DNA of 64,000 nucleotides, taken from the NCBI RefSeq assembly GCF_036507355.1, contig NZ_AP027877.1; one strand, given 5' to 3'. Source of the DNA: Escherichia coli. Lineage in GTDB: Bacteria; Pseudomonadota; Gammaproteobacteria; Enterobacterales; Enterobacteriaceae. Below are positions 7,100 through 62,142 of the stretch, piece by piece. Each line of letters opens with the position of its first letter. The stretch's first letter is position 1. Position numbers and translations under genes: made by a program. Under the pieces are notes generated by a model. That model worked only from the letters and a program-made list of their open reading frames with translations, was not told the DNA's origin and did not search any database.

Positions 7100-8398
7100 T
7101 GCAAACTAGAAAGGAGGGTTCTTGACGGCTCCCCGCCCCGAATGACGGGGATTCCCACTTCAACGAGCCGAACCTAAGCCGCGTGCTGCGATTCAGGGTT
7201 TACAGGCTCTCCGTGGGCTAACACTGCCAACCCGGCAGCTTTAATATTACGTGCCGCGTTAATGTCGCGATCATAGTCTGCGCCGCATTCAGGGCAGTGC
7301 CATTTACGAACATTAAGAGGCATTTTTTGCATGGTGAAACCGCAGCAACTACAGCATTTTGAGGACGGTAAATACTGGTCAATGGCGACCACTGACCGCT
7401 CGGCCCATTTGCCTTTGTACTGGAGCTGGCGAACAAGTTCGCTCCAGCCTGCGTCAGCTATTGCTTTAGACAGCTTCGGGTTGCGGATCATGTTTTTCAC
7501 CTTGAGGGATTCGACGCAAACAACTTGGTTTTCGTTAATCAGTTTGCGGGACAACTTGTGCAGATTGTCCATCCGGCAATCGGCGATTTTCGCGTGGAGT
7601 CGGGCGACCTTTAAGCGGGCTTTAATACGGTTTCTTGAGCCTTTTTGCTTCCTGCTTAAACATCGCTGTAGCAGCGTTAATCGCTTCGCATATTTAGCGG
7701 TGTGGCGGGGATTGTCGGTTTTGAATCCGGTATCGGTAACGAATAAATCTTTTAAGCCCACATCAATGCCGACCGTTTTAGCGGTAACAGGCATTGATAC
7801 AGGTTCAAACTCACACAGGCAGGAAACAAAGTACCTGCCAGCGCTATCTCTGGAAATGGTAACGGTTGACGGCGCAGAGGGTAATTCTCGACTCCAGCGA
7901 ACATCCAGCGGCGACTTGCTTTTGCTATATACAACTCGCCGTCACGGTGTTTAAACGCGCTGGCAGTGAACTCAGCCACCTGTTTGTGCCGTTTGCTTTT
8001 GAAAGCCGGATATGCAGCTCGTCCGGCAAAGAAGTTAGCAAAGGCGGCTTGTTGGTGGCGCAACGACTGCTGGAGGGGACATTCAGCCATATGTATTCAG
8101 GCTCTTTTTTGAGCGCCGTAAGGCGAGCGTTGGCCTGTAGATAACCGATCTTTTCCTTTCGCTCGTAGTACGCATCGGTACGCCAACGAAGGATGGAATT
8201 GTAGACGAAGCGCACACAGCCGAACGTCTGAGCTAAAAGCTCAGCCTGCTCAGTTGTCGGGTAAAACCGGTATTTATATGCGCGTTTCATGTGTTCACAT
8301 ACTAAAGAGGAAAATGTGATTATGCAAAGTACAGTTAGTCGGAAAACCGCCTCCTTTCCTCCCCGGCCTGAAGGCCGAGGTTTCCCGGAGGCATTCTA
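7100..8398 (-). mobile_element. IS200/IS605-family tnpB-only element (IS609-like), boundaries approximate
   Basis: TnpB-like coding region flanked by hairpin-forming ends (ccccg...cgggg near 7127-7150; cggcctgaaggccg near 8350-8395); no tnpA; occupies the bioA-ybhB spacer. Confidence 0.6.
7174..8290 (-). pseudogene. tnpB: tnpB (IS605 OrfB-type RNA-guided nuclease homolog) interrupted by two frameshifts
   Basis: Three overlapping minus-strand frames (7925..8290 MKRAYKYRFYPT...; 7752..8090 ...FFAGRAAYPAFKSKRHKQ...; 7174..7794 ...CCSCCGFTMQ...CPECGADYDRDINAARNI) together span one TnpB-length protein with the C-terminal zinc finger. Confidence 0.7.
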
Positions 8399-10319: not shown

Positions 10320-10434
<115 letters not shown>

Positions 10435-10435
10435 G

Positions 10436-11729
<1,294 letters not shown>

Positions 11730-12809
11730 TTACATCTGACGGTTTTTATTGAAGTTAATCAAACTACCTGCCTTGATAATCTCGCGCTCTTCAGCAGTCA
11801 GACTTTCCATATAGAGCGTAATTTCCGTTACCGGCGCATCTTCATGGATCACATAACCTTTAAACGTCGTACCCGGATTATCCAGCGCCGCTTTAATGCC
11901 AGGGATGTAAATGTAATCCCCCACTTCAAAGGTTGGTACTTCCGCCATTTGCAGCGGTAACATCCCCCAGTTGATGACGTTAGAACGATAGCGTTTAGTC
12001 GCGTACTCCTCGGCAATATTCGCCAGACCGCCAATCACACGCTGGCAGCTCGCCGCCTGTTCACGCGCAGAACCATCGCCTGGTTTCACCGCATAGACCA
12101 TGCTGCCAATTTCAGTTTGCAGCGGATCAATATGCTCCTGACCAGCAATCTGCTTAATGCGCGCAAACACCTCTGTCAGCTCGCTGACATTCCCCGCCAG
12201 ACGCTGATTTTCCAGCTCAGCAGTCGCTTTACTTCTGCCAACATAACCGGGATCGCGGCGAGACAGGGTAAACTCCGCCAGACCAATCGGATTTGAACGA
12301 TAAGAAGAGGTTTCACCGGAAGGGATCAGTTCGTCGGTGGTGGTCACTTCGTCGAGGATCTTCGAGCACACTTTGAGGACGATATTGTCAGTCAGCGCAC
12401 CTAATTCCGGCCAGTCTTTAATGTTCGGTCCGTAAATCAGCGGTTGCTGAGTTGCCCCTTTCACAAAGCCCTGATAAACACGGTTTTTATACGGCGTTAC
12501 ATCGAAGGCGTACTCCGGCACGTTGTCCCAGCAATAAAGTTCGCTGGCAGAAGTTAAATAGCCACCGTTTGCCGCAGTCGCAGCGATAGAACGAGCGTCC
12601 ATCAACGCCACCGCTGACATCTGCCCATTGGCTGGCTTAGAGCCTTCGCGATTCGGGAAGTTACGCGTGGTGTGGCGAATACTCAAACCGTTGTTGATTG
12701 GCGTATCGCCCGCGCCAAAGCATGGGCCGCAAAACGCGGTTCTGATAATTGCGCCTGCGCCAATCAAATCTGCTACCACACCTTTTTTGGCTAAATCCAT
12801 AAACACCGG
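11730..12809 (-). pseudogene. ybhJ: ybhJ (aconitase-family hydratase), C-terminal fragment
   Basis: Aconitase-like C-terminal domain; frame is contiguous with the N-terminal fragment once the IS600-like insertion is removed. Confidence 0.85.
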
Positions 12810-12873
12810 TGAGGTAGCCTGAGTTTAACGGACACTCCTTCCTGAAATAGAATGGCATCAGAAGGAGCTAATA

Positions 12874-13176
12874 ATGAGCAGAAAAACCCAACGTTACTCT
12901 AAAGAGTTCAAAGCCGAAGCTGTCAGAACGGTTCTTGAAAATCAACTTTCGATCAGTGAAGGCGCTTCCCGATTATCTCTTCCTGAAGGCACTTTAGGAC
13001 AATGGGTTACCGCCGCCAGAAAAGGGCTCGGTACTCCTGGTTCCCGCACGGTGGCTGAACTGGAATCTGAAATTCTGCAACTGCGTAAGGCGTTAAATGA
13101 AGCTCGCCTTGAGCGAGATATATTAAAAAAAGCAACAGCGTATTTTGCACAGGAGTCGCTGAAAAATACGCGTTAA
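12874..13176 (+). CDS. IS3-family transposase OrfA (HTH)
   Basis: 100 aa MSRKTQRYSKEFKAEAVRTV... with leucine-zipper-like C-terminus. Confidence 0.85.
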   Translation: MSRKTQRYSKEFKAEAVRTVLENQLSISEGASRLSLPEGTLGQWVTAARKGLGTPGSRTVAELESEILQLRKALNEARLERDILKKATAYFAQESLKNTR

Positions 13177-13211
13177 TCGAACAATGGCGACAACAATTTC
13201 CCATTGAAGCG

Positions 13212-14030
13212 ATGTGTCAGGTATTTGGTGTATCCAGGAGCGGTTATTACAACTGGGTACAGCATGAACCCTCAGACAGAAAACAAAGTGATGAGCGGCT
13301 AAAACTGGAGATTAAGGTGGCACATATCCGCACTCGCGAAACATATGGAACCCGGCGGCTCCAGACGGAGCTGGCAGAGAATGGCATCATCGTTGGTCGT
13401 GACCGACTGGCACGTCTTCGTAAGGAGCTAAGGCTACGCTGTAAGCAGAAACGCAAGTTCAGAGCGACTACGAACTCGAACCACAATCTGCCAGTTGCGC
13501 CAAATCTGCTGAACCAGACGTTCGCTCCTACAGCACCAAATCAGGTCTGGGTGGCGGACCTGACGTATGTTGCCACACAGGAGGGATGGTTGTACCTCGC
13601 TGGCATCAAAGATGTTTATACGTGCGAAATTGTCGGCTACGCCATGGGAGAGCGCATGACAAAAGAGCTGACAGGTAAAGCCCTGTTTATGGCGCTCAGG
13701 AGCCAGCGCCCACCTGCCGGGCTAATCCACCACTCTGATCGAGGTTCACAGTACTGCGCATACGATTACCGGGTCATACAGGAGCAGTTTGGTCTGAAAA
13801 CATCAATGTCGCGTAAAGGTAACTGTTACGACAACGCTCCGATGGAAAGCTTCTGGGGAACGCTGAAAAATGAGAGCCTGAGCCACTATCGTTTTAATAA
13901 CCGGGATGAAGCCATCTCAGTAATACGGGAATACATTGAGATTTTCTACAATCGTCAGCGTCGTCACTCTCGTCTGGGGAATATCTCCCCGGCAGCCTTC
14001 AGGGAAAAATATCATCAGATGGCTGCTTAA
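13212..14030 (+). CDS. IS3-family transposase OrfB (DDE integrase core)
   Basis: 272 aa with rve-type integrase core (...HHSDRGSQY...); would be expressed as an OrfAB fusion by -1 frameshift. Confidence 0.85.
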
Positions 14031-14073
14031 AAAAAGAACAAATGGTAGTGTCCGCTATTGCCAGTACACCTCA

Positions 14074-15259
14074 CCGGCTGTGATGACGGGTAAACCGCCA
14101 ACGAGAAGGTGTCATTGCCACAGGATTGACCGCGCAGTGCATTCGCCGCCGCGATGACGTTTTCGTAGTTACCGCCAGAACAGCCCGCGATAATCCCCTG
14201 CTGCACTTTCAGGCGACCATTTTCCACTTTATCCAGCAGCGAGAGTTTGGCTTTACCGTGCGCCACGCGTTCGGACTCAATTTCAATCTCACGCAGAATG
14301 TCGGTCAGGTTCTGGTTCAGTGTGTCGATTTCATACACGTTGCTCGGGTGGAACGGCAGCGCAATCATTGGTTTGATGGCGCTTAAATCAACGCTGATGC
14401 AGCCATCGTAGTACGCCATCGGTTGAGGGTTAAGCTGGCAGTAATCCTGGCCGCGACCGTGCAGCGCCAGCCAGTTATGGACTTCTTCATCGGTTTGCCA
14501 GACAGAACTTAAACAGGTCGTTTCAGTGGTCATAACGTCAACGCTGTTACGGAAATCGGTAGAGAGCGCAGCAACACCGGGACCTACGAATTCCATCACT
14601 TTGTTTTTGACGTAGCCGTTTTTGAACACGGCACCGATGATAGCCAGCGCCACATCCTGCGGCCCCACATACGGCGCTGGTTTTCCGGTCAGATGCACCG
14701 CAACAACTCCCGGATAGTCGATATCCCAGGTGTCATTAAGCAGCTGTTTTACCAACTCGCCACCGCCCTCACCGACTGCCATTGTCCCTAATGCACCGTA
14801 ACGGGTGTGGCTGTCTGACCCGAGGATCATTTTGCCGCCGCCTGCCATCATTTCACGCATATATTGATGGATGACCGCAATATGCGGAGGCACAAAAATA
14901 CCGCCATAACGCTGCGCTGCGGATAAGCCAAAAATATGGTCATCACCGTTAATAGTACCGCCCACCGCACACAGAGAGTTATGGCAGTTGGTCAGCACAT
15001 ACGGCAGCGGGAAACGTTCCATCCCGGAGGCTTTGGCTGTCTGAATAATGCCGACAAAGGTAATATCGTGAGAGGCTAAGGAATCAAACTTAATTTTAAG
15101 TTTATCCATATTTCCGGACGTATTATGAGAAGAGAGAATAGACCAGGCAATAGTGCCTTTTTTGGCTTCTTCTTTTTTAATTTCGCCGGTGAAATGTTCT
15201 TCAGCAATTATTTCGTTATTACTGGCGAGAAACACGCCTTTTTCAGATAACTTGATCAT
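14074..15259 (-). pseudogene. ybhJ: ybhJ (aconitase-family hydratase), N-terminal fragment
   Basis: [18 protein letters not shown]...; the reading frame runs into the IS600-like right end and terminates there. Confidence 0.85.
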
Positions 15260-16950: not shown

Positions 16951-18003
16951 TCAGGGAAGATAAACTTCACCGGAAAATATTTTTCTGGTCGTCCGAATAA
17001 CAGATGCGCGTAACGTCGTGGCATCCTGACCTTCATTACTTAAATGAACGTCGAGCGCACCACTGGGGTGTTCAATATTGATATTGCCGTATCCTACAGA
17101 AGGGACGATTTGTCGGGTGACGGTGCCTTCCAATGCACAACTACTGGAAATAGCAATAGCACCGGTTATCGCCAGCGCGCGATGGCAAGAATGCGGCATA
17201 AAATAACGCACATTAATTGCCCCGTCTTTCTGCGCTGGAGAAATAAGCACAGGTTTAGGGATAACCATATTACTGACATCACCTAAGCCCATTGCTTTAC
17301 CCGCTTGTAGACGGATAGATTCAATGCGGGCTAATAATGCTTTGTCGGCATCCAGTTCCGCCGGTAATTCATAACCTGTTTTTCCCAGATATTCAGCCGG
17401 AATAATGACGACTGGCATCGCCATATCGATACAGGTCACCGGGACATCGTCAAAATAATCAATCTGATTATCAGTCGGGAAAACTTTTCCGGTTTTCGTT
17501 CCAGCGGCATTCAGGAAAGTGAGCGCAACCGGTGCGGCAGTACCCGGTACGCCGTCAATTCTGGCGCTACCCTCGTACTCGACAACACCATTTGGCGTTT
17601 GCACATCAGCTTCGATGAACGTACCCGTATTGACGTTGCGGATACGTACACGGGTAACTGGCGAAGTCGCTGCAATCAAACCATTTTCAATGGCGAATGC
17701 GCCAACGCCAGACAGCATATTGCCGCAGTTAGGCGTGGTATCGACACGTTGCTCATGGACGATAACTTGAGCAAACAGATAATCAACATCAGCACGCGGA
17801 TCGCTGGAACGGCTAATAATGGCGACTTTACTGGTCAGTGGATTACCGCCGCCAATACCGTCAATTTCCAGATCATTACCGGAACCCATAATTGCCATCA
17901 ATATTTTATCGCGCTGCGTTTGATCTTCGGGTAAATGTTCCGCTAACAGGAACGCGCCCCTCGAGGTTCCACCTCGCATCATCACGCAGGGTATTTTTTT
18001 CAT
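16951..18003 (-). CDS. ybhH: PrpF-family isomerase
   Basis: 350 aa MKKIPCVMMRGGTSRGAFL... Confidence 0.88.
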   Translation of the reverse strand: MKKIPCVMMRGGTSRGAFLLAEHLPEDQTQRDKILMAIMGSGNDLEIDGIGGGNPLTSKVAIISRSSDPRADVDYLFAQVIVHEQRVDTTPNCGNMLSGVGAFAIENGLIAATSPVTRVRIRNVNTGTFIEADVQTPNGVVEYEGSARIDGVPGTAAPVALTFLNAAGTKTGKVFPTDNQIDYFDDVPVTCIDMAMPVVIIPAEYLGKTGYELPAELDADKALLARIESIRLQAGKAMGLGDVSNMVIPKPVLISPAQKDGAINVRYFMPHSCHRALAITGAIAISSSCALEGTVTRQIVPSVGYGNINIEHPSGALDVHLSNEGQDATTLRASVIRTTRKIFSGEVYLP

Positions 18004-47369: not shown

Positions 47370-47823
47370 AACCAATCAAATATGTTAATTATGTATAAAC
47401 CATAGATCATTGGTGATTTTATTGTTAATTTATTGTGAAATATTTATGCAACACAATTATTACAATGAAAAGGTATAGATAAAAAACCAGTATTTTATTT
47501 AACAGAACCGCCTTATCCACTTTTTATAATACCAATTGATTAGAGTAGCCAATTTGTTGCTATTTTACATAACATATTTTTATCAAAGTTAATTGATTGT
47601 TACCTTTATGAGCACCGACCGTAAGCCCGTTATGTTATTGTTTCATTAGTAATAATCACTTAAATGTATCGATGAAACAGGTATGACTTACCGGGAGTGA
47701 TTGTTTCTGAGTGAACAGAGGCCACTTTCGCCTGATAAATGAAAAATGAGCGATTTTTGCAAGTTAGTTTTTCTATAGCCGAGTACGCTCAGCGCCTCGC
47801 TTGATTACAATGAGGTTGCTGCT

Positions 47824-48768
47824 ATGAGTCCTGATAATATCGGTTCGGCTGTCAATCGCTTCTCAGGTTGGCCATCTAATGATTCTCTAAAAACAGATAA
47901 AGAATCAATGACATCACCCGTGACTGTGCAGGTAATAAAGATGATTGCCGCCATCCTTGACCCACATCGGATAGTCGTTGGAATCGATACACTTTATACA
48001 ACGCAGCGCGAAACATTTACCTCAGAGAGTCAACAGCTCATTGAATCAGCATTGCAAACACTTCATGTGATGAATTTAAATAATCTGGAAACAAATCGCG
48101 ATGAAGAAGGTCACTATCTGGCTTTTGAATATAACGTTGACACCTCTGACAGAATAACCGTTTCTGCTTATAATGAAAAAAAGCCTGGCTGCTATGGCCA
48201 ATGTCTTGTAATACAGGATGACGAAACAGACTTATTTAACCTGATAAAAATTAAAATTTTCGAAGCCAGGCATAATTATGTCGCTCAATTGATGAGCGAT
48301 CCGGAATTTATGTTCAAATTCAGTTATAGCGCTCAACAAAATAGATTAGAACCTCATCTTCTGGTTCCCGCTTATTTCCCTCTAAAAACAAACGAACCGG
48401 TTACGCAAGAGGATGTACTGTTACTTTATCGTTTCTTTAAAATGAATGATGATTTTAATAAATTAACATCAGATGAATACATGAGTATCCTGACACCTCT
48501 GATGAAGTGTGAGCGTAGCGTCCACGACAACAACAGGTATGTGACGGGCAAAGATACCCTTCTTCTGGACTATCCTCCTTCTGGTAACCAGATACATTTC
48601 CATGTTTTCCCTGACGAATCAGCAACACTAGTCCTTTATTTTTCAAACAATGACCTTGAATGTTTCGTCTTTGAAAGAGATATTCCTAGCCAGTATCGCT
48701 TTTTCAAAATGTTTACCAATCTGGCACTGGTTATAGATCAGTTAACCGAAGCCAATAAAATACTTTAA
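47824..48768 (+). CDS. Hypothetical protein, AT-rich, no recognisable domain
   Basis: 314-aa uninterrupted ORF with visibly lower GC than flanking core genes; absent from the K-12 gene order at this locus. Confidence 0.55.
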   Translation: MSPDNIGSAVNRFSGWPSNDSLKTDKESMTSPVTVQVIKMIAAILDPHRIVVGIDTLYTTQRETFTSESQQLIESALQTLHVMNLNNLETNRDEEGHYLAFEYNVDTSDRITVSAYNEKKPGCYGQCLVIQDDETDLFNLIKIKIFEARHNYVAQLMSDPEFMFKFSYSAQQNRLEPHLLVPAYFPLKTNEPVTQEDVLLLYRFFKMNDDFNKLTSDEYMSILTPLMKCERSVHDNNRYVTGKDTLLLDYPPSGNQIHFHVFPDESATLVLYFSNNDLECFVFERDIPSQYRFFKMFTNLALVIDQLTEANKIL

Positions 48769-48848
48769 TTTTCTATATATCCCTATGGCTAATATTGCTA
48801 AACAATGCCTGGGGATTAATTTTTATTACTCACGGAAAGATTTAAATA

Positions 48849-49271
48849 ATGATACCATCTCAGATCTCTTTCAATACCCTTCCAGTCAATGCAACATACG
48901 CTTCAGAGACAACAGTTGACACACAAAAATTCTCTGACATCCTCTACTCAGCGGGGTGTTCCCTAAAGGATATGGCTTATCTGAGCAGATGTCTGGCATC
49001 AATACACCCGACTATCGCCAAAAACATTTATGAAACAGAAAATCTCAGCGATCAAAAATTACTGCATATTGATTGCCGTAGTACAAATGAAATCAAGATA
49101 AATATCTTTTTTGGTCAGCAAAGAGAAGGGTTAATTGAAATTAGTTCTGACACAGTTATTTTTTCGATACTGTCTTCATTGATTGACTCCGCCATTTCTA
49201 AATTTCAACACCAAAACCCGGTTAACGGTTTAGTTAATCCTGAAATATTGTATGAGGATTATACTGATTAA
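48849..49271 (+). CDS. Hypothetical protein, AT-rich
   Basis: 140-aa ORF immediately downstream of and co-oriented with the 314-aa ORF; plausible RBS (ggaaag) upstream. Confidence 0.45.
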   Translation: MIPSQISFNTLPVNATYASETTVDTQKFSDILYSAGCSLKDMAYLSRCLASIHPTIAKNIYETENLSDQKLLHIDCRSTNEIKINIFFGQQREGLIEISSDTVIFSILSSLIDSAISKFQHQNPVNGLVNPEILYEDYTD

Positions 49272-49818
49272 ATCCACCCTGTCGCGAAAAATGGCCTGCG
49301 TTATTGCCAGACGTAATAAAACCTTTGATTAACGTTACTCATACTGGTAGCACCTTCATGTACCTCTCTTTTTTACGAAAAATCAAAAGAGCTAACTAAG
49401 GTCATAATTCGCATGAATCATTAACCATTTGTTATTTTCAACATTATTTTTACATTAAGCAGAGATGAATTGCAGTGAAATTCGACTTAAATCTTATGAA
49501 ATGCATTTACTCATGGCTAAAACCACGTCACAAAAATGCAAATTAGAAGTAGATCACAATTATCTCAATACATTAAATCAAGTTAATTTTAAAAATTTAA
49601 CATTCATGACATTAGTTGACATAACACACTGAATTAACATGGAAATTTAAAAACACACTTTAAACAATCATTTCCCGAAAGACATTTTGAAAATAGATCA
49701 ATTGCAACATTACGGTCAGATAAAGACACTCCTGTGATATTAAACCTGTGCCGTTATGAACGGCCATAAATACGACGTGTGTAACTTATTTTACTCTCTG
49801 TCTTACAAAGGATTACCC

Positions 49819-50268
49819 ATGAAGAAAGCAACACTTGTGATTGGCGTTATTGGCGCGGACTGCCATGCAGTAGGCAATAAAGTTCTGGACCGCGTTTTTA
49901 GCAACCACGACTTCAGAGTCATTAATCTGGGCGTAATGGTCAGCCAGGACGAATATATTGATGCTGCCATTGAAACTGGCGCTGACGCGATTGTCGTCTC
50001 CTCTATCTATGGGCATGGCGATATCGACTGTCTGGGCATGCGCGAACGCTGCATCGAGCGTGGACTGGGGGACATCCTGCTCTATGTGGGCGGTAACCTG
50101 GTGGTCGGAAAACATGACTTCGCTGACGTGGAAACCAAATTCAAAGAGATGGGATTTGATCGCGTCTTTGCCCCAAGTCATGACTTAGAAGATGTTTGTC
50201 AGCTGATGGCCCACGATATCAACCAACGTCATGACATTGATACTCGTATTCTTGAAGAGGCTATCTGA
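49819..50268 (+). CDS. glmS: Glutamate mutase sigma subunit (B12-binding)
   Basis: [22 protein letters not shown]... with the DxHxxG cobalamin-binding motif; about 149 aa; RBS aaagga. Confidence 0.85.
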
Positions 50269-51656
50269 TGCAAATCGTCTCTGTCGATATTGGATCGACG
50301 TGGACCAAAGCAGCCCTCTTCACCCGGGAGGGGGACGCGTTAACGTTGGTTAACCACGTACTGACCCCAACCACCACCCATCATCTGGCGAAGGGGTTTT
50401 TCTCCAGCCTGAACCAAGTGTTAAACGTAGATAATGCCCTCCCCCTGTTAAACAGCGGTGAGGTTGCATTGAAGTATTCCTCCTCTGCCAAAGGTGGGCT
50501 GGCGGTTGCCGCAATGGGATTGGTGCCTTCTATCACCCTGGAAACCGCGAAAGTAACCGCTCACTCTGCGGGTGCTAAAATTGCGCAATATTACGCCTAC
50601 AAGCTGAACCGCCGTGATATCCAGGCACTGGAAGAAACGCAGCCCGATATTCTCTTGTTCACCGGCGGCACCGACGGCGGAGAAGAAAGCTACGGACTGA
50701 ATAACGCCCGTGTGCTGGCAGAATCCAAACTCGACTGCGCCATTATTTATGCCGGAAACCGGGATATTCAGGACGAGGTGCAGGAGCTCCTCGGGCATAA
50801 AGACCTGACCATCGTCGACAATGTTCTGCCCGATCTTGACCATCCGAACCCTTTAGCCGCACGCCAGGCTATTTGCGACATATTCCTTAAACGCATCGTT
50901 AAAGGGAAAGGGCTGGATGTCATTGTTGATAAAACAGGCGAAGAACCAATGCCGACACCATGGACGGTCTTTGAACTGGTCAAGGCAATCAGTAACGTCG
51001 ATCACAGCTGGAAAGAGTTCATGCTGATCGACATGGGCGGCGCAACCACCGATGTTTATTCCGTCTGTGCCAACACGCTCTCGCCCGACACCGTTTTACA
51101 CGGCGTACCGGAACCCTTCGTAAAACGGACGGTGGAAGGCGATCTGGGAATGCGCGTCTCGGCAGTGGTGGTTGGTGAAAGTGCGAAAGAGTTAGTCAAT
51201 GTGAATTTTGCTCAGCAACCCGCACAGCTGGACGCTTTTTATCATTACCTCCGTCATCTAGTCGCTCATCCCGACTACTTACCCGCAAATGCAGAAGAGA
51301 AATATTTCGATACCGTCCTGGCCGGACTGTGTGTGGGTTATGCCACCGAAAGACATGCGGGCACCAAAAAAGAGGTCTGCACCTGCGTCGGCAATGTCGA
51401 TTTACAGATGGGACGTGACCTGACAACCGTGCGTAAAGTCGTCGGATCCGGCGGATGGCTCTCGCGTGCCAGTCAGTTCGATATGCATCACTGGTTGAAA
51501 TACCGCGAGTTAAACGACGACGGTAAACGCATTCTCTTACCGACCGAATTTGAATATTACCGCGATTCCCGGGGGCTATTACCACTGCTGGCAAACGTCG
51601 CCAGAGTCGATCCGCTGGCCGCCGCGCGCACCAGTATTCAATGCTTAACCCTATAA
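50268..51656 (+). CDS. glmL: Glutamate mutase accessory protein GlmL/MutL-like
   Basis: 462 aa between the S and E subunit genes, the size and position expected for GlmL. Confidence 0.75.
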   Translation: MQIVSVDIGSTWTKAALFTREGDALTLVNHVLTPTTTHHLAKGFFSSLNQVLNVDNALPLLNSGEVALKYSSSAKGGLAVAAMGLVPSITLETAKVTAHSAGAKIAQYYAYKLNRRDIQALEETQPDILLFTGGTDGGEESYGLNNARVLAESKLDCAIIYAGNRDIQDEVQELLGHKDLTIVDNVLPDLDHPNPLAARQAICDIFLKRIVKGKGLDVIVDKTGEEPMPTPWTVFELVKAISNVDHSWKEFMLIDMGGATTDVYSVCANTLSPDTVLHGVPEPFVKRTVEGDLGMRVSAVVVGESAKELVNVNFAQQPAQLDAFYHYLRHLVAHPDYLPANAEEKYFDTVLAGLCVGYATERHAGTKKEVCTCVGNVDLQMGRDLTTVRKVVGSGGWLSRASQFDMHHWLKYRELNDDGKRILLPTEFEYYRDSRGLLPLLANVARVDPLAAARTSIQCLTL

Positions 51657-51674
51657 CAATTAAGGCTGCAATCA

Positions 51675-53120
51675 ATGGAACTTCGAAATAAGAAATTAAC
51701 CCATGACGAATTCATGACCGAGCGGCAACAGGTACTGAAAACCTGGGAAACCGGCAAGGATGTTGAAAACTTTGAAGATGGCGTTAAATACCAACAAACC
51801 ATCCCTGAGCATAAACGCTTCTCTCTTGCGCTGCTGAAAGCAGACAAGGAAGGTAAAACCCTTAGCCAACCGCGCGCAGGTGTGGCGCTGATGGACGAAC
51901 ACATCGAACTGCTGAAAACACTACAAGAAGAGTGCGATCTGCTGCCAAGCACCATCGATGCATATACCCGTCTGAATCGGTACGAAGAAGCGGCTGTAGG
52001 GATTAAAAAATCCATCGAAGCCGGAACCTCTAAACTGAACGGTTTACCGGTAGTTAACCATGGTGTCGCAGCTTGCCGTCGCCTCACCGAAACCCTGCAA
52101 AAACCGCTACAGATCCGCCACGGCACGCCAGATGCGCGTCTGCTGGCTGAAATCTCAATGGCCAGCGGCTTTACCAGTTATGAAGGCGGTGGCATTTCCT
52201 ACAACATTCCGTATGCCAAACGCGTAACGCTGGAAAAATCGATCCGCGACTGGCAGTACTGCGACCGTTTAATGGGGATGTATGAAGAACACGGGATCCG
52301 CATCAACCGCGAACCGTTTGGCCCACTAACGGGTACGCTGATCCCGCCGTTTATCTCGCATTCTATCGCGATAATCGAAGGCTTGCTGGCACTGGAACAG
52401 GGTGTGAAATCTATCACCGTTGGTTATGGCCAGGTCGGCAGCCTGACGCAGGATGTTGCGGCGATCCAGTCTCTGCGTGAACTTGCACACGAATATTTTC
52501 AGAGCTATGGCTATACCGACTATGAATTGAGTACCGTGTTTCACCAGTGGATGGGCGGCTTTCCGGAAGACGAATCGAAAGCGTTCGCTATTATCTCCTG
52601 GGGTGCAGCCGTCGCGGGGATGTCTGGTGCCACCAAAGTCATCACCAAAAGTCCGCACGAAGCCTGGGGTATCCCGACTGCCGCTGCCAACATTCAGGGG
52701 CTGAAAGCCTCCCGCCAGATGCTCAACATGGTCAATGAGCAGAAATTCCCGCCGTGCCCTGCGGTTGAACTGGAAATTGAACTGATTAAGAGCGAGGTTC
52801 GCGCTGTACTGAATAAAGTGTTCGAACTGGGTAATGGTGATATTGCGCGCGGTACGGTGCTGGCATTTGAAGCGGGCGTACTGGATGTGCCATTTGCGCC
52901 AGCCGCCTGCAACGCGGGCAATATTCTTCCGGTCCGTGACAACACCGGCGCGATACGCGTACTGGAAGCCGGAGCCGTTCCATTGCCAAAAGATATTCTC
53001 GATCTCCACCACGATTACGTTGCGGAACGCGCACGCTTTGAAGGACGCCAACCGACATTCCAGATGGTTGTAGATGACATCAATGCTGTATCCCACAGTA
53101 AATTAATAGGAAGACCATAA
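51675..53120 (+). CDS. glmE: Glutamate mutase epsilon (catalytic) subunit
   Basis: 481 aa, the size and position expected for GlmE/MutE. Confidence 0.8.
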   Translation: MELRNKKLTHDEFMTERQQVLKTWETGKDVENFEDGVKYQQTIPEHKRFSLALLKADKEGKTLSQPRAGVALMDEHIELLKTLQEECDLLPSTIDAYTRLNRYEEAAVGIKKSIEAGTSKLNGLPVVNHGVAACRRLTETLQKPLQIRHGTPDARLLAEISMASGFTSYEGGGISYNIPYAKRVTLEKSIRDWQYCDRLMGMYEEHGIRINREPFGPLTGTLIPPFISHSIAIIEGLLALEQGVKSITVGYGQVGSLTQDVAAIQSLRELAHEYFQSYGYTDYELSTVFHQWMGGFPEDESKAFAIISWGAAVAGMSGATKVITKSPHEAWGIPTAAANIQGLKASRQMLNMVNEQKFPPCPAVELEIELIKSEVRAVLNKVFELGNGDIARGTVLAFEAGVLDVPFAPAACNAGNILPVRDNTGAIRVLEAGAVPLPKDILDLHHDYVAERARFEGRQPTFQMVVDDINAVSHSKLIGRP

Positions 53121-54361
53121 TGAAAATAAAACAGGCTCTGTTCACCGCTGGCTACTCCTCATTCTATTTCGATGACCAGCAGGCGATAAAAAACGGAGCG
53201 GGTCATGACGGCTTTTTTTATACCGGGGAGCCGGTAACACAGGGGTTTAACGCCGTTCGTCAGGCCGGGGAGTGCGTATCGGTACAGTTGATTCTGGAAA
53301 ACGGCGCGGTCGCTGTAGGTGACTGTGCTGCCGTACAGTATTCCGGGGCAGGTGGTCGCGACCCACTGTTCCTCGCAGAGCTCTTTATTCCGTTCCTCAA
53401 CGACCATATCAAGCCATTACTGGTAGGCCGCGATGTGGATGCTTTCCTGCCGAATGCCCGTTTCTTCGACAAATTGCGTATTGACGGCAACTTGCTGCAT
53501 ACCGCCGTGCGCTACGGATTATCACAGGCGCTGCTTGATGCTACCGCGCTGGCAACCGGCCGTCTGAAAACTGAAGTGGTCTGTGATGAATGGCAGTTGC
53601 CACGCGTGGCGGAATCCATTCCATTATTTGGTCAGAGCGGCGACGATCGATATATCGCCGTCGATAAGATGATCCTTAAGGGCATCGACGTGCTGCCCCA
53701 TGCGCTGATTAATAACGTCGAAGAGAAGCTGGGCTTTAAAGGTGAAAAACTGCGCGAATATGTCCGCTGGTTGTCGGATCGCATTCTAAGCAAGCGCACC
53801 AGCGCACGCTACCACCCAACCTTGCACATCGATGTATACGGCACTATCGGTCTGATCTTCGATATGGATCCGCTTCGCTGTGCGCAATACATCGCCAGCC
53901 TGGAAAAAGAAGCGCAAGGCCTGCCGCTCTACATTGAAGGGCCGGTCGATGCCGGTAACAAGCCCGATCAAATTCGCCTGCTGACCGCGATTACCAAAGA
54001 GCTGACGCGCCTCGGTTCCGGCGTGAAAATTGTGGCCGATGAATGGTGTAACACCTACCAGGATGTTGTTGATTTCACTGATGCCGCCAGTTGTCACATG
54101 GTGCAAATCAAAACCCCGGATCTGGGCAGTATTCACAACATCGTCGATGCGGTTCTTTACTGCAACAGCCACAGCATGGAAGCGTACCAGGGCGGCACCT
54201 GCAATGAAACTGATGTCAGTGCCCGCACCTGTGTCCACGTCGCCCTTGCCGCTCGCCCTATGCGTATGCTGGTAAAGCCAGGGATGGGCTTTGACGAAGG
54301 CCTCGATATCGTCTTCAACGAAATGAATCGTACTATCGCGCTGTTGCAGGCTAAGGATTAA
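53120..54361 (+). CDS. 3-methylaspartate ammonia-lyase (enolase superfamily)
   Basis: 413 aa, directly downstream of glmE. Confidence 0.82.
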   Translation: MKIKQALFTAGYSSFYFDDQQAIKNGAGHDGFFYTGEPVTQGFNAVRQAGECVSVQLILENGAVAVGDCAAVQYSGAGGRDPLFLAELFIPFLNDHIKPLLVGRDVDAFLPNARFFDKLRIDGNLLHTAVRYGLSQALLDATALATGRLKTEVVCDEWQLPRVAESIPLFGQSGDDRYIAVDKMILKGIDVLPHALINNVEEKLGFKGEKLREYVRWLSDRILSKRTSARYHPTLHIDVYGTIGLIFDMDPLRCAQYIASLEKEAQGLPLYIEGPVDAGNKPDQIRLLTAITKELTRLGSGVKIVADEWCNTYQDVVDFTDAASCHMVQIKTPDLGSIHNIVDAVLYCNSHSMEAYQGGTCNETDVSARTCVHVALAARPMRMLVKPGMGFDEGLDIVFNEMNRTIALLQAKD

Positions 54362-54364
54362 CAA

Positions 54365-55734
54365 ATGGCTCGTTCTTTTAAAGTCTTATCGCCAACAGCA
54401 ATCCTCGGGTATGGATTCCCGGAAGAGAGCTTCCGCAAAGCGATGGCAGAATCACCCGATCTGATCGCCGTTGATGCAGGCTCTTCCGATCCAGGCCCCC
54501 ACTACCTCGGGCAGGCAAACCGTTTACCGATCGCGCAGGGGTCAAGCGCGATCTGCGCTATATGATCACCGCAGGCGTGCAAAATAATATACCGGTGGTG
54601 ATCGGAACGGCCGGCGGTTCTGGTGCCGCTCCACACCTGGAGTGGTGCCGAGAAATAATTCATGAGATTGCCCAGGAAGAGCACCTCTCGTTCTCGATGG
54701 CGTTGATCCCGGCAGACGTTGACAAAGCCATCGTCCACCAGGCGCTGGATAACGGCAAAATCACGGCGCTGGATTTTGTCCCGCCGTTAACCCACGACGC
54801 GATTGACGAAAGTACGTATATCGTCGCGCAAATGGGCATCGAACCCTTCCAGCGGGCGCTAAAAGAAGGCGCGCAAGTGGTGCTGGGTGGGCGCGCTTAC
54901 GACCCGGCCTGCTTTGCTGCGCTACCGATCATGCAAGGCTTTGATGAAGGTCTGGCGCTGCATTGTGGGAAAATCCTTGAATGCGCGGCAATCGCCGCAA
55001 CGCCCGGCTCAGGCTCTGACTGTGCGATGGGCATCATTGATGACAACGGCTTTACGCTGAAGACATTTAATCCGAAGCGTAAATTTACCGAAACGTCAGC
55101 AGCTGCACACACACTGTATGAGAAATCCGATCCCTACTTCCTGCCAGGACCTGGCGGCGTGTTGAACCTGAAAGGCTGCACATTTAAAGCAGTCAATGAC
55201 GGCGAAGTCTACGTCAGCGGTTCTAAGCATGAAGAAACGCCGTATGCCCTGAAACTGGAAGGTGCACGACGGGTGGGCTTCCGCTGTCTGACCATCGCCG
55301 GAACGCGCGACCCGATTATGATCGCCGGGATCGATAAACTCATCGATGAAGTCAAAACCAGCGTTTCGCGTAACCTGTCGCTCGACGATGACAGCATTCG
55401 CATCAATTTCCACCTGTACGGCAAAAACGGGGTGATGGGAGACCATGAACCGATGCAAACTGCCGGGCATGAGCTGGGGATTGTTCTTGATGTAGTTGCA
55501 CCGACCCAGGAAATTGCCAATAGCGTTTGCTCGCTGGTGCGCTCTACCATGCTGCACTACGGCTATGAAAACCGCATCGCTACCGCAGGTAATCTGGCGT
55601 TCCCGTTCTCCCCTTCTGATATCCAGGGCGGGCCGGTATACGAATTTTCCATATATCACCTGATTGAAGCCAACGACGCTCTGCGTTTTGATTTCCATAT
55701 TGAACAGGTGACGCCAGAAGGAGTTCAGGCATGA
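54365..55734 (+). pseudogene. AtuA-like DUF1446 protein with an apparent +1 frameshift near 54515-54565
   Basis: Two consecutive ORFs (54365..54565 and 54562..55734) in different frames together make one ~455-aa DUF1446-type protein. Confidence 0.55.
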
Positions 55735-56048
55735 AACAGTCAATTGTCTCACTGGCGCAAGTCATTCGTTCGAAAAATGCCGGACCTTACGAACTGGTTT
55801 TAGATATTTTATTTAAAACGAAAGAAAACTATGAGCGAGTTAAATCATCAGGGCAATTAACCCCAGAACTGATTGCGCGCTTATATCATGTTGAACCTGA
55901 CTTTATTCATCGTATTGTCTGGTTTGATCCTTCTAACGCAGTAAAAATCGTCATGCCACGAGATATTATCTCCGGGAATGTAGGTGACAATGATGTCTAT
56001 GGTGCACAGCAACATGCACCTTTATTAAATATGAGTTTCGATTTGTAA
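55731..56048 (+). CDS. DUF4387-family small protein (partner of DUF1446)
   Basis: 105 aa, start overlaps the DUF1446 stop. Confidence 0.6.
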   Translation: MKQSIVSLAQVIRSKNAGPYELVLDILFKTKENYERVKSSGQLTPELIARLYHVEPDFIHRIVWFDPSNAVKIVMPRDIISGNVGDNDVYGAQQHAPLLNMSFDL

Positions 56049-56208
56049 AAATCCGAATACTTTTAGCCAACTGACATCCCGTCACTTATTGCAGTTCAAC
56101 ACTTCAGCTATTTGTAAGGTTGTAATAGCAGGTAGATGCCTGAATCTCTATTCAGGCATCTACTTCTCCTGATTCTGATTTATCGCCGTGCACCTGATGG
56201 AGGAAAAA

Positions 56209-57489
56209 ATGAAGAAAATAAGTTTAACCACGATGATTCTTTTGGCGCTGGTACTTGGAATGATTATCGGCGTAGTGCTCAATAACACTGCTTCACCGGA
56301 AACAGCAAAACTCTATGCGCAAGAAATATCGATATTCACGACGATTTTCTTACGACTGATAAAAATGATTATCGCTCCGTTAGTGGTCTCTACCCTGGTG
56401 GTAGGTATTGCTAAAATGGGCGATGCCAAAGCCCTTGGTCGTATTTTTTCTAAAACACTCTTTTTATTTATTTGCGCCTCATTGCTGTCAATTGCCTTAG
56501 GCTTGATAACGGTAAATTTCTTCATGCCAGGCACAGGAATTAATTTTGTTGCACACGGTGCCGAAACCACAGGAGTGGTCGCGTCAGAACCCTTTACGCT
56601 AAAAGTATTTATTTCGCATGCTTTCCCCACCAGCATTGTCGATGCCATGGCGCACAATGAAATTTTGCAAATCGTGGTGTTCTCAATTTTCCTCGGCTGT
56701 AGCCTGACGGCGATTGGCGAGAAAGGCAGCGCCATCGTTCACGCCTTAGATTCGCTGGCACATGCCATGTTAAAGCTCACTGGCTACGTCATGCTCTTCG
56801 CTCCCCTGACCGTATTCGCCGCTATTTCAGCATTGATTGCTGAACGAGGACTGGCAGTTATGGTGAGCGCCGGGATCTTTATGGGTGAATTTTATTTCAC
56901 CATGTTATTACTTTGGGTGCTGCTTATCGGTCTGGCCATCGTTTATGTCGGCCCCTGCATCAGACGCCTGACCCGCGCCCTTTCGGAACCCGCCCTGCTG
57001 GCATTTACCACATCCAGTTCTGAAGCGGCTTTTCCGGGAACGCTTGAAAAACTGGAGCAATTTGGCGTTTCCCCCAAAATTGCCAGCTTTGTCTTACCCA
57101 TTGGCTACTCATTTAATCTCGTTGGATCAATGGCCTACTGCTCCTTCGCCACAGTTTTCATCGCCCAGGCCTGCAATATCCATTTATCCATCGGTGAGCA
57201 AATCACCATGCTGTTGATCCTGATGTTGACCTCGAAAGGAATGGCTGGCGTACCACGCGCCTCAATGGTGGTTATCGCCGCCACGCTCAACCAGTTCAAT
57301 ATTCCGGAAGCGGGGCTGATCTTGCTGATGGGCGTTGATCCGTTCCTTGATATGGGGCGTTCCGCGACAAACGTCATGAGCAACGCAATGGGCGCTGCGA
57401 TGGTGAGTCGGTGGGAAGGCGAACATTTCGGCGAGGGCTGTCGGGGTAAAGCATTAAAACCCAATGAATCGAACGTTGCTCTGCCCTGA
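56209..57489 (+). CDS. Dicarboxylate/amino acid:cation symporter (DAACS/GltP-DctA family)
   Basis: About 427-aa polytopic membrane protein; ATG at 56209 preceded by RBS ggagg. Confidence 0.8.
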   Translation: MKKISLTTMILLALVLGMIIGVVLNNTASPETAKLYAQEISIFTTIFLRLIKMIIAPLVVSTLVVGIAKMGDAKALGRIFSKTLFLFICASLLSIALGLITVNFFMPGTGINFVAHGAETTGVVASEPFTLKVFISHAFPTSIVDAMAHNEILQIVVFSIFLGCSLTAIGEKGSAIVHALDSLAHAMLKLTGYVMLFAPLTVFAAISALIAERGLAVMVSAGIFMGEFYFTMLLLWVLLIGLAIVYVGPCIRRLTRALSEPALLAFTTSSSEAAFPGTLEKLEQFGVSPKIASFVLPIGYSFNLVGSMAYCSFATVFIAQACNIHLSIGEQITMLLILMLTSKGMAGVPRASMVVIAATLNQFNIPEAGLILLMGVDPFLDMGRSATNVMSNAMGAAMVSRWEGEHFGEGCRGKALKPNESNVALP

Positions 57490-57596
57490 GGGGGATCTTA
57501 AGCAATCAGAAGCCAATGACTACGCATTTTTATAAGCCGGATCATGAAGTTAGACGGCAATTAAGTAACACTAACGTTTAAGGTGAAAAGTGAAAT

Positions 57597-59249
57597 ATGT
57601 CCAAACCATTTATCTGGCAAGAACCGTTTCTACAAAATAAAGACGGTACAGAATATACATTAATTAGCGATCAACATATTACAGTAACGGAATTAGACGG
57701 CGAAGAAGTGATAAAAATCGCTCCTGAAGCATTAACGCTGCTTGCCCGGCAGGCATTTTATGAAGCCTCTTTTTTCTTACGTTCCGCTCATTTGCAACAG
57801 GTCGCCAGCATTCTTAACGATCAGCAGGCCAGCAGTAATGATAAATACGTTGCGTTGCAGTTATTACGTAATGCTGAAGTCTCAGCAAAAGGGGTATTAC
57901 CCAACTGTCAGGATACCGGCACCGCAACTATTGTTGCCAGTAAAGGGCAACAGATATGGACCGGAAGTAACGACGCCGAAGCTTTAAGTAAAGGCATTTA
58001 CAGTACTTTCCAGGAAAATAATCTGCGCTTTTCACAAAATGCGCCGCTGGATATGTATACCGAAGTCAATACGCAAACCAATCTCCCGGCGCAGATTGAT
58101 ATCAGCGCTGTCGCTGGTGATGAGTACCATTTTCTCTGTGTTAATAAAGGGGGCGGCTCCGCCAATAAAGCCGCGCTTTATCAGGAAACCAAATCCTTAT
58201 TGCAACCAGAAAAACTGACCGCATTTTTAATCGAAAAAATGAAATCGCTGGGCACCGCTGCCTGCCCGCCTTACCACATCGCCTTTGCCGTCGGAGGGCT
58301 TTCAGCCGATCAAACCTTAAAAGTTGCCAAGCTGGCCTCAACGAAATATTACGACAATTTGCCCACCAGCGGAAACGAGCAGGGACAAGCATTCCGTGAT
58401 ATTGAGCTGGAAAAAGCGTTGCTCGAGGCCAGTCAGCAATTTGGTATTGGTGCACAATTTGGGGGGAAATATTTCGCTCATGATATTCGCGTCATTCGTC
58501 TGCCGCGTCACGGTGGCTCTTGCCCGATAGCTATGGCGCTCTCCTGTTCTGCCGATCGCAATATCAAAGCAAAAATTAACAAACACGGTATCTGGCTAGA
58601 AAAACTCGAACACAATCCGGGGCAATATATTCCAGCCTCATTGCGGGAAGAAAATCACGCGCAACATGTACAACTGGATCTAAACCGTCCGTTGCGTGAC
58701 GTGATGCTGGATCTCGCCAGATTACCGGTAGGTACCCGCGTGTCGTTAAGTGGTCCCATCGTAGTGGCGCGCGATATCGCCCACGCCAAAATAAAAGCGC
58801 GGCTGGATAGCGGCGAATCGATGCCGGAGTACCTGAAGCATCATATTGTCTATTACGCTGGCCCGGCGAAAACACCGGAGAACATGGCCTGCGGTTCACT
58901 GGGTCCAACCACGGGCGGTCGAATGGATGGTTATGTCGATACCTTCCAGGCGGCCGGCGGCAGTCTGGTGATGTTATCGAAAGGTAACCGCAGCCAGCAG
59001 GTCACCGATGCCTGTCACAAACATGGCGGCTTCAATCTGGGAAGTATTGGCGGTGCAGCTGCGTTACTGGCGCAAGAATATGTCAAAAGTCTGCGTTGCC
59101 TGGAATACCCGGAGCTGGGTATGGAAGCGGTGTGGATGATGGAAGTGGAAAATCTGCCCGCATTCATCCTGGTAGATGATAAAGGCAATAATTTCTTTAG
59201 TCAGTTTGAGCAGCAACACCGCTGCGCCAGTTGCCCTGCGGGACATTAA
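57597..59249 (+). CDS. fumD: Class I (Fe-S) fumarate hydratase paralog, likely mesaconase (FumD-type)
   Basis: 550 aa with class I fumarase features; embedded in the methylaspartate cluster. Confidence 0.8.
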
Positions 59250-59258
59250 GGAAAATGA

Positions 59259-59861
59259 ATGGAAGCGCGAATTTCAACTGAACGGCATGTGCAGCGCCAA
59301 CAGAAATTGAAGGAACAGGTCGATACGCGCGTCGCGGCGGCGATAGAGAAAAAAGGGATCTTGATTGTTTTCACCGGCAACGGCAAAGGGAAATCCACTG
59401 CCGCGTTTGGTACTGTGACGCGCGCGGTGGGTCATGGCAAAACGGTGGGGGTTGCGCAGTACATCAAGGGGCAATGGGACAACGGCGAATACAACCTTCT
59501 CCAGCCGCTGGGGGTTGAGTTTCATATTATGGGAACCGGTTTTACCTGGGAGACACAGAACCGGCAAGCGGATATCGACGCGGCGAAAGAGGTCTGGTCG
59601 GAAAGCAAACGGATGCTGGCTGACAAGCGTTACGACTTAGTGGTGCTTGATGAGCTGACCTATATGCTGGCTTACCATTATTTGGATACCGAAGAAGTGA
59701 TCGCTTCTCTGCAAAACCGCCCGGCACAACAAAGTGTCATTGTCACCGGACGCGGTTGCCACAGTCAGATATTAAAAATGGCGGATACGGTAAGCGAAAT
59801 CCGCCCCGTCAAACATGCTTTTGATAACGGCATTCAGGCCCAGCCGGGTATAGACTGGTAA
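59259..59861 (+). CDS. Cob(I)alamin adenosyltransferase (CobA/BtuR-type paralog)
   Basis: 200 aa with P-loop VFTGNGKGKSTAAFG and strong similarity to BtuR. Confidence 0.85.
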   Translation: MEARISTERHVQRQQKLKEQVDTRVAAAIEKKGILIVFTGNGKGKSTAAFGTVTRAVGHGKTVGVAQYIKGQWDNGEYNLLQPLGVEFHIMGTGFTWETQNRQADIDAAKEVWSESKRMLADKRYDLVVLDELTYMLAYHYLDTEEVIASLQNRPAQQSVIVTGRGCHSQILKMADTVSEIRPVKHAFDNGIQAQPGIDW

Positions 59862-59894
59862 TAACTGCGCCTGGCATCCCGCCAGGCGCAGGTT

Positions 59895-60557
59895 TTACAT
59901 CTCCTGCGGTACGACCGATTTCGCCAGCAACCATTCACGAAATTGCTGCAAGTGCGGTGAGTCAGACTTCTCTTCCTGCCACGTCATAATAAAACGATTA
60001 CCGGTACGAATAGGCACATCACAGGGAATCACCATATCGCCACTATCCAAATCATGTTGAATAGCGAAACGTGGTAACAGCGCCACGCCGAGATTAGAGC
60101 GCACGGCGGCAATCAGCATTGAAAGCAAATCGAAACGTGGTCCGTTATTGACCAACGGACTGCTAACGCCAGATAAAGCAAACCACTCTTCCCAGCCAGT
60201 AATACGGGTGCTTTGATGCAGAAGCGGTAACTCAGTAAGCAGTTCTGCCACTGACAGCTTTTGATCGGACATTGCAAGCAAACTGCCGCTGCATACCGGC
60301 AAAATCTCCTCATCAAAGAGATATTCTACTTCCGCCCAGGGCGCGCAAAAATTTTCGCGCATAATGACAGCATCGTACTCCCGATTAAGAAAATCGCCGT
60401 TATTAGCTAAAGAATGAATATTAACAATAATATCGGGATGTAACTTTGTGAATTCATGTAAATTTGGGATCAACCAGTGGGTACTAAAAGTAGGATTAAC
60501 GGCAAGTTCAATAACCTGAACCGTAGGCTGCCAGGTCATAATGGTATTGGTATCGCG
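59895..60557 (-). pseudogene. LysR-family regulator, C-terminal part (interrupted by IS1)
   Basis: LysR substrate-binding domain; frame is continuous with the N-terminal HTH fragment once IS1 and one copy of the 9-bp duplication are removed. Confidence 0.8.
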
Positions 60558-60612
60558 GGTGATGCTGCCAACTTACTGATTTAGTGTATGATGGTGTTTT
60601 TGAGGTGCTCCA

Positions 60613-60888
60613 GTGGCTTCTGTTTCTATCAGCTGTCCCTCCTGTTCAGCTACTGACGGGGTGGTGCGTAACGGCAAAAGCACCGCCGGACATCAGCGCT
60701 ATCTCTGCTCTCACTGCCGTAAAACATGGCAACTGCAGTTCACTTACACCGCTTCTCAACCCGGTACGCACCAGAAAATCATTGATATGGCCATGAATGG
60801 CGTTGGATGCCGGGCAACAGCCCGCATTATGGGCGTTGGCCTCAACACGATTTTACGTCACTTAAAAAACTCAGGCCGCAGTCGGTAA
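60613..60888 (+). CDS. insA: IS1 InsA
   Basis: [41 protein letters not shown]...; slippery A6C site (ttaaaaaactc) near 60868 for the InsAB' fusion. Confidence 0.95.
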
Positions 60889-61310
60889 CCTCGCGCATAC
60901 AGCCGGGCAGTGACGTCATCGTCTGCGCGGAAATGGACGAACAGTGGGGCTATGTCGGGGCTAAATCGCGCCAGCGCTGGCTGTTTTACGCGTATGACAG
61001 GCTCCGGAAGACGGTTGTTGCGCACGTATTCGGTGAACGCACGATGGCGACGCTGGGGCGTCTTATGAGCCTGCTGTCACCCTTTGACGTGGTGATATGG
61101 ATGACGGATGGCTGGCCGCTGTATGAATCCCGCCTGAAGGGAAAGCTGCACGTAATCAGCAAGCGATATACGCAGCGAATTGAGCGGCATAACCTGAATC
61201 TGAGGCAGCACCTGGCACGGCTGGGACGGAAGTCGCTGTCGTTCTCAAAATCGGTGGAGCTGCATGACAAAGTCATCGGGCATTATCTGAACATAAAACA
61301 CTATCAATAA
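60807..61310 (+). CDS. insB: IS1 InsB (transposase C-terminal frame)
   Basis: 167-aa frame overlapping insA in -1 frame; ...[44 protein letters not shown]... Confidence 0.93.
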
Positions 61311-61326
61311 GTTGGAGTCATTACCG

Positions 61327-61577
61327 GTATCGCGTTCCAGCTTATTTAATGTTTCTTTTACTATCCCCAGGTAATACTTCCCAGCATCATTAAGAAAAAT
61401 GCGTTTTTTAGAGTGTGAAAATAACGGAGTACGTAAAAATTCCTCCAGCGCACTTACTTGTCTGAATACTGCACTTTGGGTTAACGCTAACTCCTCTGCC
61501 GCTCTGGTATAACTTTCATGACGTGCGACGACCTCAAAAGTCACCAGCAGTTCCGTTTTAGGTATTTTCCCTCGCAT
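61327..61577 (-). pseudogene. LysR-family regulator, N-terminal HTH part (interrupted by IS1)
   Basis: ...FEVVARHESYTRAAEELALTQSAVFRQVSALEEFL... helix-turn-helix; the frame runs into IS1. Confidence 0.8.
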
Positions 61578-62142
61578 AATGCCGTCCCTTAAAAATAGTT
61601 TAAACCATCAAAAATACATTACTTATTACGAAGTAATGGTAACCAAAGCAGCAATAAATAATTTATAAGAATCATGATTGACATTTATAAACCAGTAAGC
61701 CTGGCGTGACAAATATCTTAATCAGATAATAATAATCCGAAAAGCACAGCGCCTTTCGAATTATCCGGAATCACATTAAGTGAAAATTATTAAATTGATA
61801 TCATTTATCATATCTGTGGATATTATGATAAACAATCAACAAAGATTTTATTTTTGATTTATAGCATATCCCTCTAAGAATTTTTGCGATGCTGCAATAT
61901 CCGGGGTAAAGACCCGATCCTGGCTGACAAATGGCACGACTTGACGAAAAGCGGTGAACATCGCTTTTGTTGATTTACTTAACGCTACGGTCAAACGCTG
62001 GGAAGCCAGTGCATCAGGTAACGATTCGAAATTCGCCGTCGTTCTTATTCGTGGCTTGCGGTCGGTTGCGGCAATCCACAGTGGCTGTGGTCATGCAGTC
62101 AAGCCTGCAGTCAGATTTCGACCGTGGTTAACCGTTTAAGGC

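Follow-up and report, generated by a model that had tools for sequence, protein, structure and literature searches.

A very recent IS600 insertion with a 4-bp target duplication in ybhJ of an Escherichia coli strain

Introduction

In the 64-kb stretch of Escherichia coli DNA analysed here (the window), the gene ybhJ is split by an insertion sequence (IS), which raises the questions of what the element is, whether it arrived by simple insertion, what it did to the gene and whether it marks a genome undergoing IS expansion of the Shigella kind. An earlier note, made from the sequence alone, had described an IS600-like element lying cleanly within ybhJ and had compared the IS density of the window with that of Shigella. 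Here we identify the element by comparison with annotated copies, reconstruct the empty site and place the insertion against complete E. coli genomes and close relatives of the source strain. We conclude, with a probability of about 95%, that IS600 inserted into ybhJ very recently and privately in this strain, leaving an allele that is almost certainly null, with polarity not expected.

The element in ybhJ is a complete IS600

Window positions 12810–14073 (plus strand) hold a complete IS600 of 1264 bp that starts with TGAGGT and ends with ACCTCA, precisely the span and length that the earlier note had given; the left terminus reads TGAGGTAGCC and the right terminus GTACACCTCA. Across positions 1–1264 the DNA is 100% identical to loci named 'IS3-like element IS600 family transposase' in RefSeq, among them one on Shigella sonnei 53G plasmid A and others on several chromosomes and plasmids of E. 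coli. The proposed IS3 family assignment is therefore right, and the qualifier '-like' can be dropped, since 100% identity over 1264 bp makes this IS600 proper. IS600, of the IS3 group within the IS3 family, was first described in Shigella sonnei. The features of the element are as follows.

12810..12836, plus strand: left terminal inverted repeat (IRL), starting 5'-TG and matching the reverse complement of the right end
12825..12853, plus strand: promoter-like site, TTAACG and TAGAAT with a 17-nt spacer, partly within IRL and upstream of orfA (consensus match only)
12874..13176, plus strand: orfA, 100 aa, HTH and leucine-zipper regulatory/DNA-binding protein (Pfam HTH_Tnp_1, E = 1.5e-20)
13125..13131, plus strand: slippery heptamer A AAA AAA, followed by G, in a computed phase relative to orfA that suits a −1 frameshift
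13131..14030, plus strand: orfB frame (−1), catalytic part of the OrfAB transposase (Pfam HTH_21, rve, rve_2 and rve_3)
13138..13171, plus strand: hairpin (MFE fold), putative frameshift stimulator, 6 nt 3' of the slippery site
14047..14073, plus strand: right terminal inverted repeat (IRR), ending CA-3'

Both the orfA/orfB organization and the imperfect terminal inverted repeats seen by the earlier note are present, with 19 matches in the first 27 positions of the repeats where chance would give about 7. A GGAG Shine-Dalgarno-like sequence lies 8 nt 5' of the orfA ATG, and the position of the promoter-like site suggests a role in orfA expression. The two reading frames stand in 0/−1 relative phase, as the IS3 family requires; the orfB frame is open from 13113, with an ATG-started orfB of 272 aa at 13212–14030. 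The conceptual OrfAB fusion is 385 aa long and spans the same bases as the RefSeq coding sequence WP_085948186.1, which is annotated 'programmed frameshift', and −1 frameshifting on A AAA AAA is predicted for this copy. The hairpin may stimulate that frameshift, to judge from its position, with a fold z-score for the whole region (−1.68) that is not significant. A scan of the whole window against Rfam found no family at the frameshift region or at the left end of the IS621 element described below, and its matches were limited to tRNAs, RtT and the cpoB thermometer.

The family assignment is equally clear at the protein level. OrfAB matched the NCBIfam model NF033516 'IS3 family transposase' along its full length (model positions 1–369 of 369) with 414.5 bits against a cut-off of 160 bits, and the next best NCBIfam model, IS481, scored 76.8 bits, far below its cut-off of 224; together with the 100% identity to copies that RefSeq names IS600, this leaves the element in the family first proposed for it. 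The Pfam rve match in OrfB has E = 3.2e-26, and the DDE residues of OrfAB (D229, D289 and E325) have a D-60-D-36-E spacing that fits the family. The copy is intact and presumably active.

IS3-family elements transpose by a copy-out–paste-in route through a figure-of-eight and a circle, for which IS911, IS3 and IS2 are the models (PMC3299598, PMC1636345). By analogy, the OrfAB transposase would be made by −1 ribosomal frameshifting on A AAA AAA and would excise a copy of IS600 as a circle, the circle would be integrated at a staggered target cut, and repair of the stagger would double CCGG. Like the three models, the ybhJ copy has orfA and orfB, an A-rich heptamer for −1 frameshifting, a DD(35)E core, TG..CA repeats and a short duplication; it differs from them in that the figure-of-eight and circle are here extrapolated from the family and the downstream hairpin is a fold prediction only. 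Set against known IS600 (WP_085948186.1), it has the same 1264-bp sequence, ends, 385-aa transposase span and IS3-family HMM match, and differs only in its insertion site (ybhJ codon 395/396) and in a duplication of 4 bp rather than 3 bp.

Reconstruction of the empty site

The element and the two parts of the gene that it separates are arranged as follows.

11730..12809, minus strand: ybhJ 3' part, codons 395/396–753 and stop (tblastn to K-12 YbhJ residues 392–753, 98.6% identity)
12806..12809: target-site duplication CCGG, left copy, with a single CCGG at the empty site of five contigs (L001, L006, L133, L134 and L135)
14074..14077: target-site duplication CCGG, right copy, from the sequence and the empty-site comparison
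14074..15259, minus strand: ybhJ 5' part, codons 1–395 and the first base of codon 396 (tblastn to K-12 YbhJ residues 1–396, 99.2% identity)

IS600 entered ybhJ past the first base of codon 396. Intact E. coli ybhJ and the contigs of clone-mates (close relatives of the source strain) read AAACACCGGCTGTG with one CCGG, so the ccgg that the earlier note had seen on both sides is a true target duplication. Removal of the element together with 4 bp yields a 753-aa ybhJ open reading frame with no stop, whereas taking out 3 bp with it leaves ybhJ frameshifted, which sets the length of the duplication at 4 bp. In place, the 1268-bp insert shifts the ybhJ frame by 2, and the halves, which had been described as in frame with each other, are so after the conceptual removal of the element and 4 bp and not in the DNA as it stands. 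We also rebuilt the empty site by joining 300 bp from each side with one CCGG dropped, and this sequence matched ybhJ of E. coli PapM-32-1 at 599 of 600 positions without a gap. The insertion is thus as clean as had been supposed, with a gap-free empty site and an intact 753-aa frame upon excision.

Consequences for ybhJ

Both minus-strand open reading frames that flank the element match Pfam Aconitase. The 5' part of ybhJ reads into the IS and stops at 14027, giving a 410-aa product identical to BED23193.1, in which 395 native residues are followed by a 15-aa tail whose first residue, Val, coincides with the native V396. YbhJ residues C360, C421 and C424 align with the three Fe-S ligand cysteines of pig mitochondrial aconitase (5acn), and the CGPC pair (C421, C424) is encoded by the ybhJ 3' part. 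IS600 parts the first Fe-S ligand, C360, from the C421-x-x-C424 pair of an aconitase-family hydratase, so that the 410-aa N-terminal product would be inactive and the allele is almost certainly null. Because ybhJ is the last gene of ybhH-ybhI-ybhJ and is convergent with ybhC, its interruption is not expected to be polar on other genes.

The gene itself has been described as a putative hydrolase beside the YbhD-regulated ybhHI genes (PMC9068703), and we found no literature that names both IS600 and ybhJ. Another truncated YbhJ (P0002, 405 aa, ending ...DLAKKVW) is encoded on 18 E. coli contigs, with a break 7 codons downstream of the IS600 site, which indicates that ybhJ has been disrupted independently, close to the same place, in other E. 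coli.

The insertion is private to the source strain

We searched 5426 complete E. coli genomes and found no IS600/ybhJ junction; the ybhJ site was uninterrupted in 5373 of them (at least 99%). The exact split products, BED23193.1 and BED23190.1, labelled E. coli, come from one deposited genome only, where they lie on a contig of 4,643,937 bp, and the exact intact 753-aa YbhJ allele is found in several E. coli assemblies. Clone-mates include GCA_016660925.1, GCA_905398585.1, ERR3330519 and SRR17480487. Three clone-mate contigs (L006, L134 and L135) match both flanks of the insertion at 100% identity, and a fourth (L133) has 2 mismatches in 12.3 kb (99.98% flank identity); all four carry an intact ybhJ with a single CCGG. 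Judging from these comparisons, the IS600 event is private to the source strain and very recent. Two of the contigs, L006 and L134, run into IS621 downstream of an uninterrupted ybhJ, and IS621 is therefore older than the IS600 insertion. The closest complete RefSeq genome is only 98.9% identical to the window over 23 kb, so the lineage is poorly represented among complete genomes.

IS load of the window and the Shigella question

Comparison with K-12 bore out the earlier count of four IS-type elements in 64 kb, namely IS600 and the following three.

7126–8398: IS200/IS605-type tnpB remnant, frameshifted, in at least three open reading frames and without tnpA, between bioA and ybhB
10380–11658: IS621 of the IS110 family (bridge-RNA recombinase type), 1279 bp with one AG/CT core counted in, flanked by two REP sequences and sited between ybhC and ybhJ
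60558–61325: IS1 of 768 bp, flanked by a perfect duplication of 9 bp (GGTATCGCG), breaking a LysR-type regulator gene

The elements differ in how widely their junctions are shared. That of the tnpB remnant is common to 341 of the 5426 E. coli genomes, which marks the remnant as an old, lineage-shared relic. The IS621 junction at the ybhC/ybhJ site occurs in 2 of the 5426; the left end of this IS621 (11466–11656) is 191 bp, the same length as the bridge-RNA-encoding left end reported for IS621 (PMC11208160), and at least three entries from the source genome (BED21007, BED21590 and BED23189) hold an identical IS621 transposase.

The LysR-type gene is left as flanking open reading frames at 59895–60539 and 61245–61577 (minus strand), and excision of IS1 yields a LysR-type protein of 301 aa, a common one in E. 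coli. Many other E. coli also have this gene split, there by a frameshift rather than by IS1. Tracing the IS1 insertion through the 214-aa C-terminal open reading frame was uninformative, the same frame arising from IS1-free frameshift alleles in many E. coli. The gene adjoins a methylaspartate cluster within a 14.7-kb segment (47395–62136) that stands in place of K-12 mngR-mngA-mngB between cydA and sucD and encodes methylaspartate mutase S, L and E, methylaspartate ammonia-lyase, a class I fumarate hydratase, a DctA/GltP-like transporter and a cobalamin adenosyltransferase, the components of the methylaspartate route of glutamate catabolism. At the edge of this island, two adjacent plus-strand open reading frames of 314 aa and 140 aa (47824–49271) matched no NCBIfam family; the exact 314-aa protein is recorded as hypothetical from Shigella boydii and E. 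coli.

The four elements amount to 6.25 per 100 kb, numerically in the Shigella range; Shigella chromosomes carry 229–348 IS each (PMC7373316). The comparison with Shigella stands only as a local figure and is weakened as a sign of lineage by the old remnant, the intact orthologues and the E. coli label. One could still suppose a source lineage of the Shigella or EIEC type, undergoing Shigella-like IS expansion and genome decay, with ybhJ one of hundreds of hits. The duplications or core repeats of IS600, IS621 and IS1 are all intact, few or none of the 5426 E. coli genomes have these elements at the same positions, and this, with the local density, the distance to the nearest complete genome and the repeated IS621 transposase entries, would fit such a lineage. 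We nevertheless consider it unlikely. The window's proteins are labelled E. coli, and 42 of its 43 K-12 orthologues are intact: all besides ybhJ are full length and free of stops, nadA among them. IS621 and the tnpB remnant, half of the count, are not among the five IS types expanded in Shigella (IS1, IS2, IS4, IS600 and IS911; PMC7373316). Near-full-length IS600 occurs in 1613 of the 5426 complete E. coli genomes (about 30%) and is therefore no Shigella marker. In clone-mate drafts, IS621 contigs of about 1.25 kb are numbered about 108–109, which, as a rough guide, suggests ordinary fragmentation. S. sonnei and S. flexneri in particular were ruled out as sources, as their ybhJ fragments differ from the window allele at several residues and read through the site. 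The window thus resembles the IS-driven gene loss of Shigella (PMC7373316) in that IS600 and IS1 break metabolic and regulatory genes at a Shigella-range local density, and differs from it in its label, its intact neighbouring core genes and the kinds of IS that make up the count. A strain-level event in E. coli remains our reading of the insertion.

A second IS insertion in ybhHIJ

In the clone-mate assembly GCA_905398585.1 (L134, positions 1–77, at about window position 17869), ybhH is joined at codon 45 to 75 bp from the end of an IS1; the DNA of this assembly is otherwise 100% identical to the window and its ybhJ is intact. IS elements are therefore active in this clone. The two IS hits in ybhHIJ could be due to high IS activity, to selection against the pathway or to chance.

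If selection were at work, the ybhJ knock-out would be adaptive, the clone having been selected to lose the ybhH-ybhI-ybhJ pathway and IS elements having supplied the mutations. Two independent IS hits in one operon of about 5 kb among about five sampled clone members argue for this, as does the break of the 405-aa protein so close to the IS600 site. Yet there are only two events, noticed post hoc. The site is intact in at least 99% of complete E. coli genomes, ybhJ is intact in at least four clone-mates, and none of ybhH, ybhI and ybhJ is named in the supplements of the Shigella IS study (PMC7373316). We therefore regard an adaptive knock-out as improbable and keep to a recent insertion that is private to the strain.

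The 4-bp duplication among IS600 copies

To place the CCGG duplication, we surveyed 88 distinct full-length IS600 copies from IMG/VR loci plus two annotated copies (together L004, L005 and L013–L132). Duplications of 3 bp flanked 34 of the 88, none had 4 bp or more, and 54 had no duplication, which suggests frequent rearrangement after insertion in prophage-type contexts. All 34 copies with a duplication thus have 3 bp, compared with the palindromic 4 bp at ybhJ, and a 3-bp duplication has been given for IS3-family members outside the IS407 and IS2 subgroups (PMC10045372). At 4 bp, CCGG falls in the 3–5 bp range of the IS3 family and misses the 3 bp that is characteristic of IS600 without defining it. 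The departure is genuine but minor, and the event slightly atypical. A stagger of 4 bp explains it most simply; a 3-bp stagger with one stray or carried-over base would have the same outcome and cannot be distinguished from it by sequence.

The many copies without a duplication also show that rearranged IS600 is common elsewhere, but an assembly artefact or recombination between two IS600 copies in place of simple insertion can be taken as effectively refuted here and is very improbable, for the flanks are contiguous halves of one gene with a perfect duplication of the target bases, the empty site of the clone-mates matches to the base, and neither process would make CCGG on both sides.

Discussion

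The element, its family and its behaviour are all already known, and ybhJ::IS600 is an ordinary strain-specific mutation, not a novel kind of element. The same IS has been found in lacZ of STEC O121:H19, where the insertion is reversible through the IS-excision enhancer IEE (PMC9397093). As in that case, the IS600 insertion is a polymorphism at strain or lineage level that inactivates a metabolic gene of the chromosome; unlike it, the 64-kb window carries no IEE gene.

A broader proposal takes the insertions in ybhJ and ybhH as at least two independent, near-contemporaneous IS knock-outs of ybhH-ybhI-ybhJ in a nearly SNP-free clone that is at most 98.9% identical to the 5426 genomes. They would then point to selection against an uncharacterised tricarboxylate-type pathway or to an early-stage IS burst outside Shigella, and relaxed strand-transfer spacing would have produced the palindromic 4-bp duplication as a by-product. 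We hold this to be doubtful, although slightly less so than either the adaptive or the Shigella-type account taken singly.

For practical purposes, annotation of this strain should record ybhJ as a pseudogene disrupted by IS600 and name the element IS600. As the insertion is absent from otherwise identical clone-mates, it could also be used as a very recent clonal marker. The verified 4-bp CCGG duplication, against 3 bp in 34 of 34, may be a small point of interest to IS specialists. Beyond strain annotation ybhJ::IS600 carries little weight by itself; two different ISs in one uncharacterised operon offer an inexpensive starting point for asking whether ybhHIJ is dispensable or selected against in the niche of this clone.
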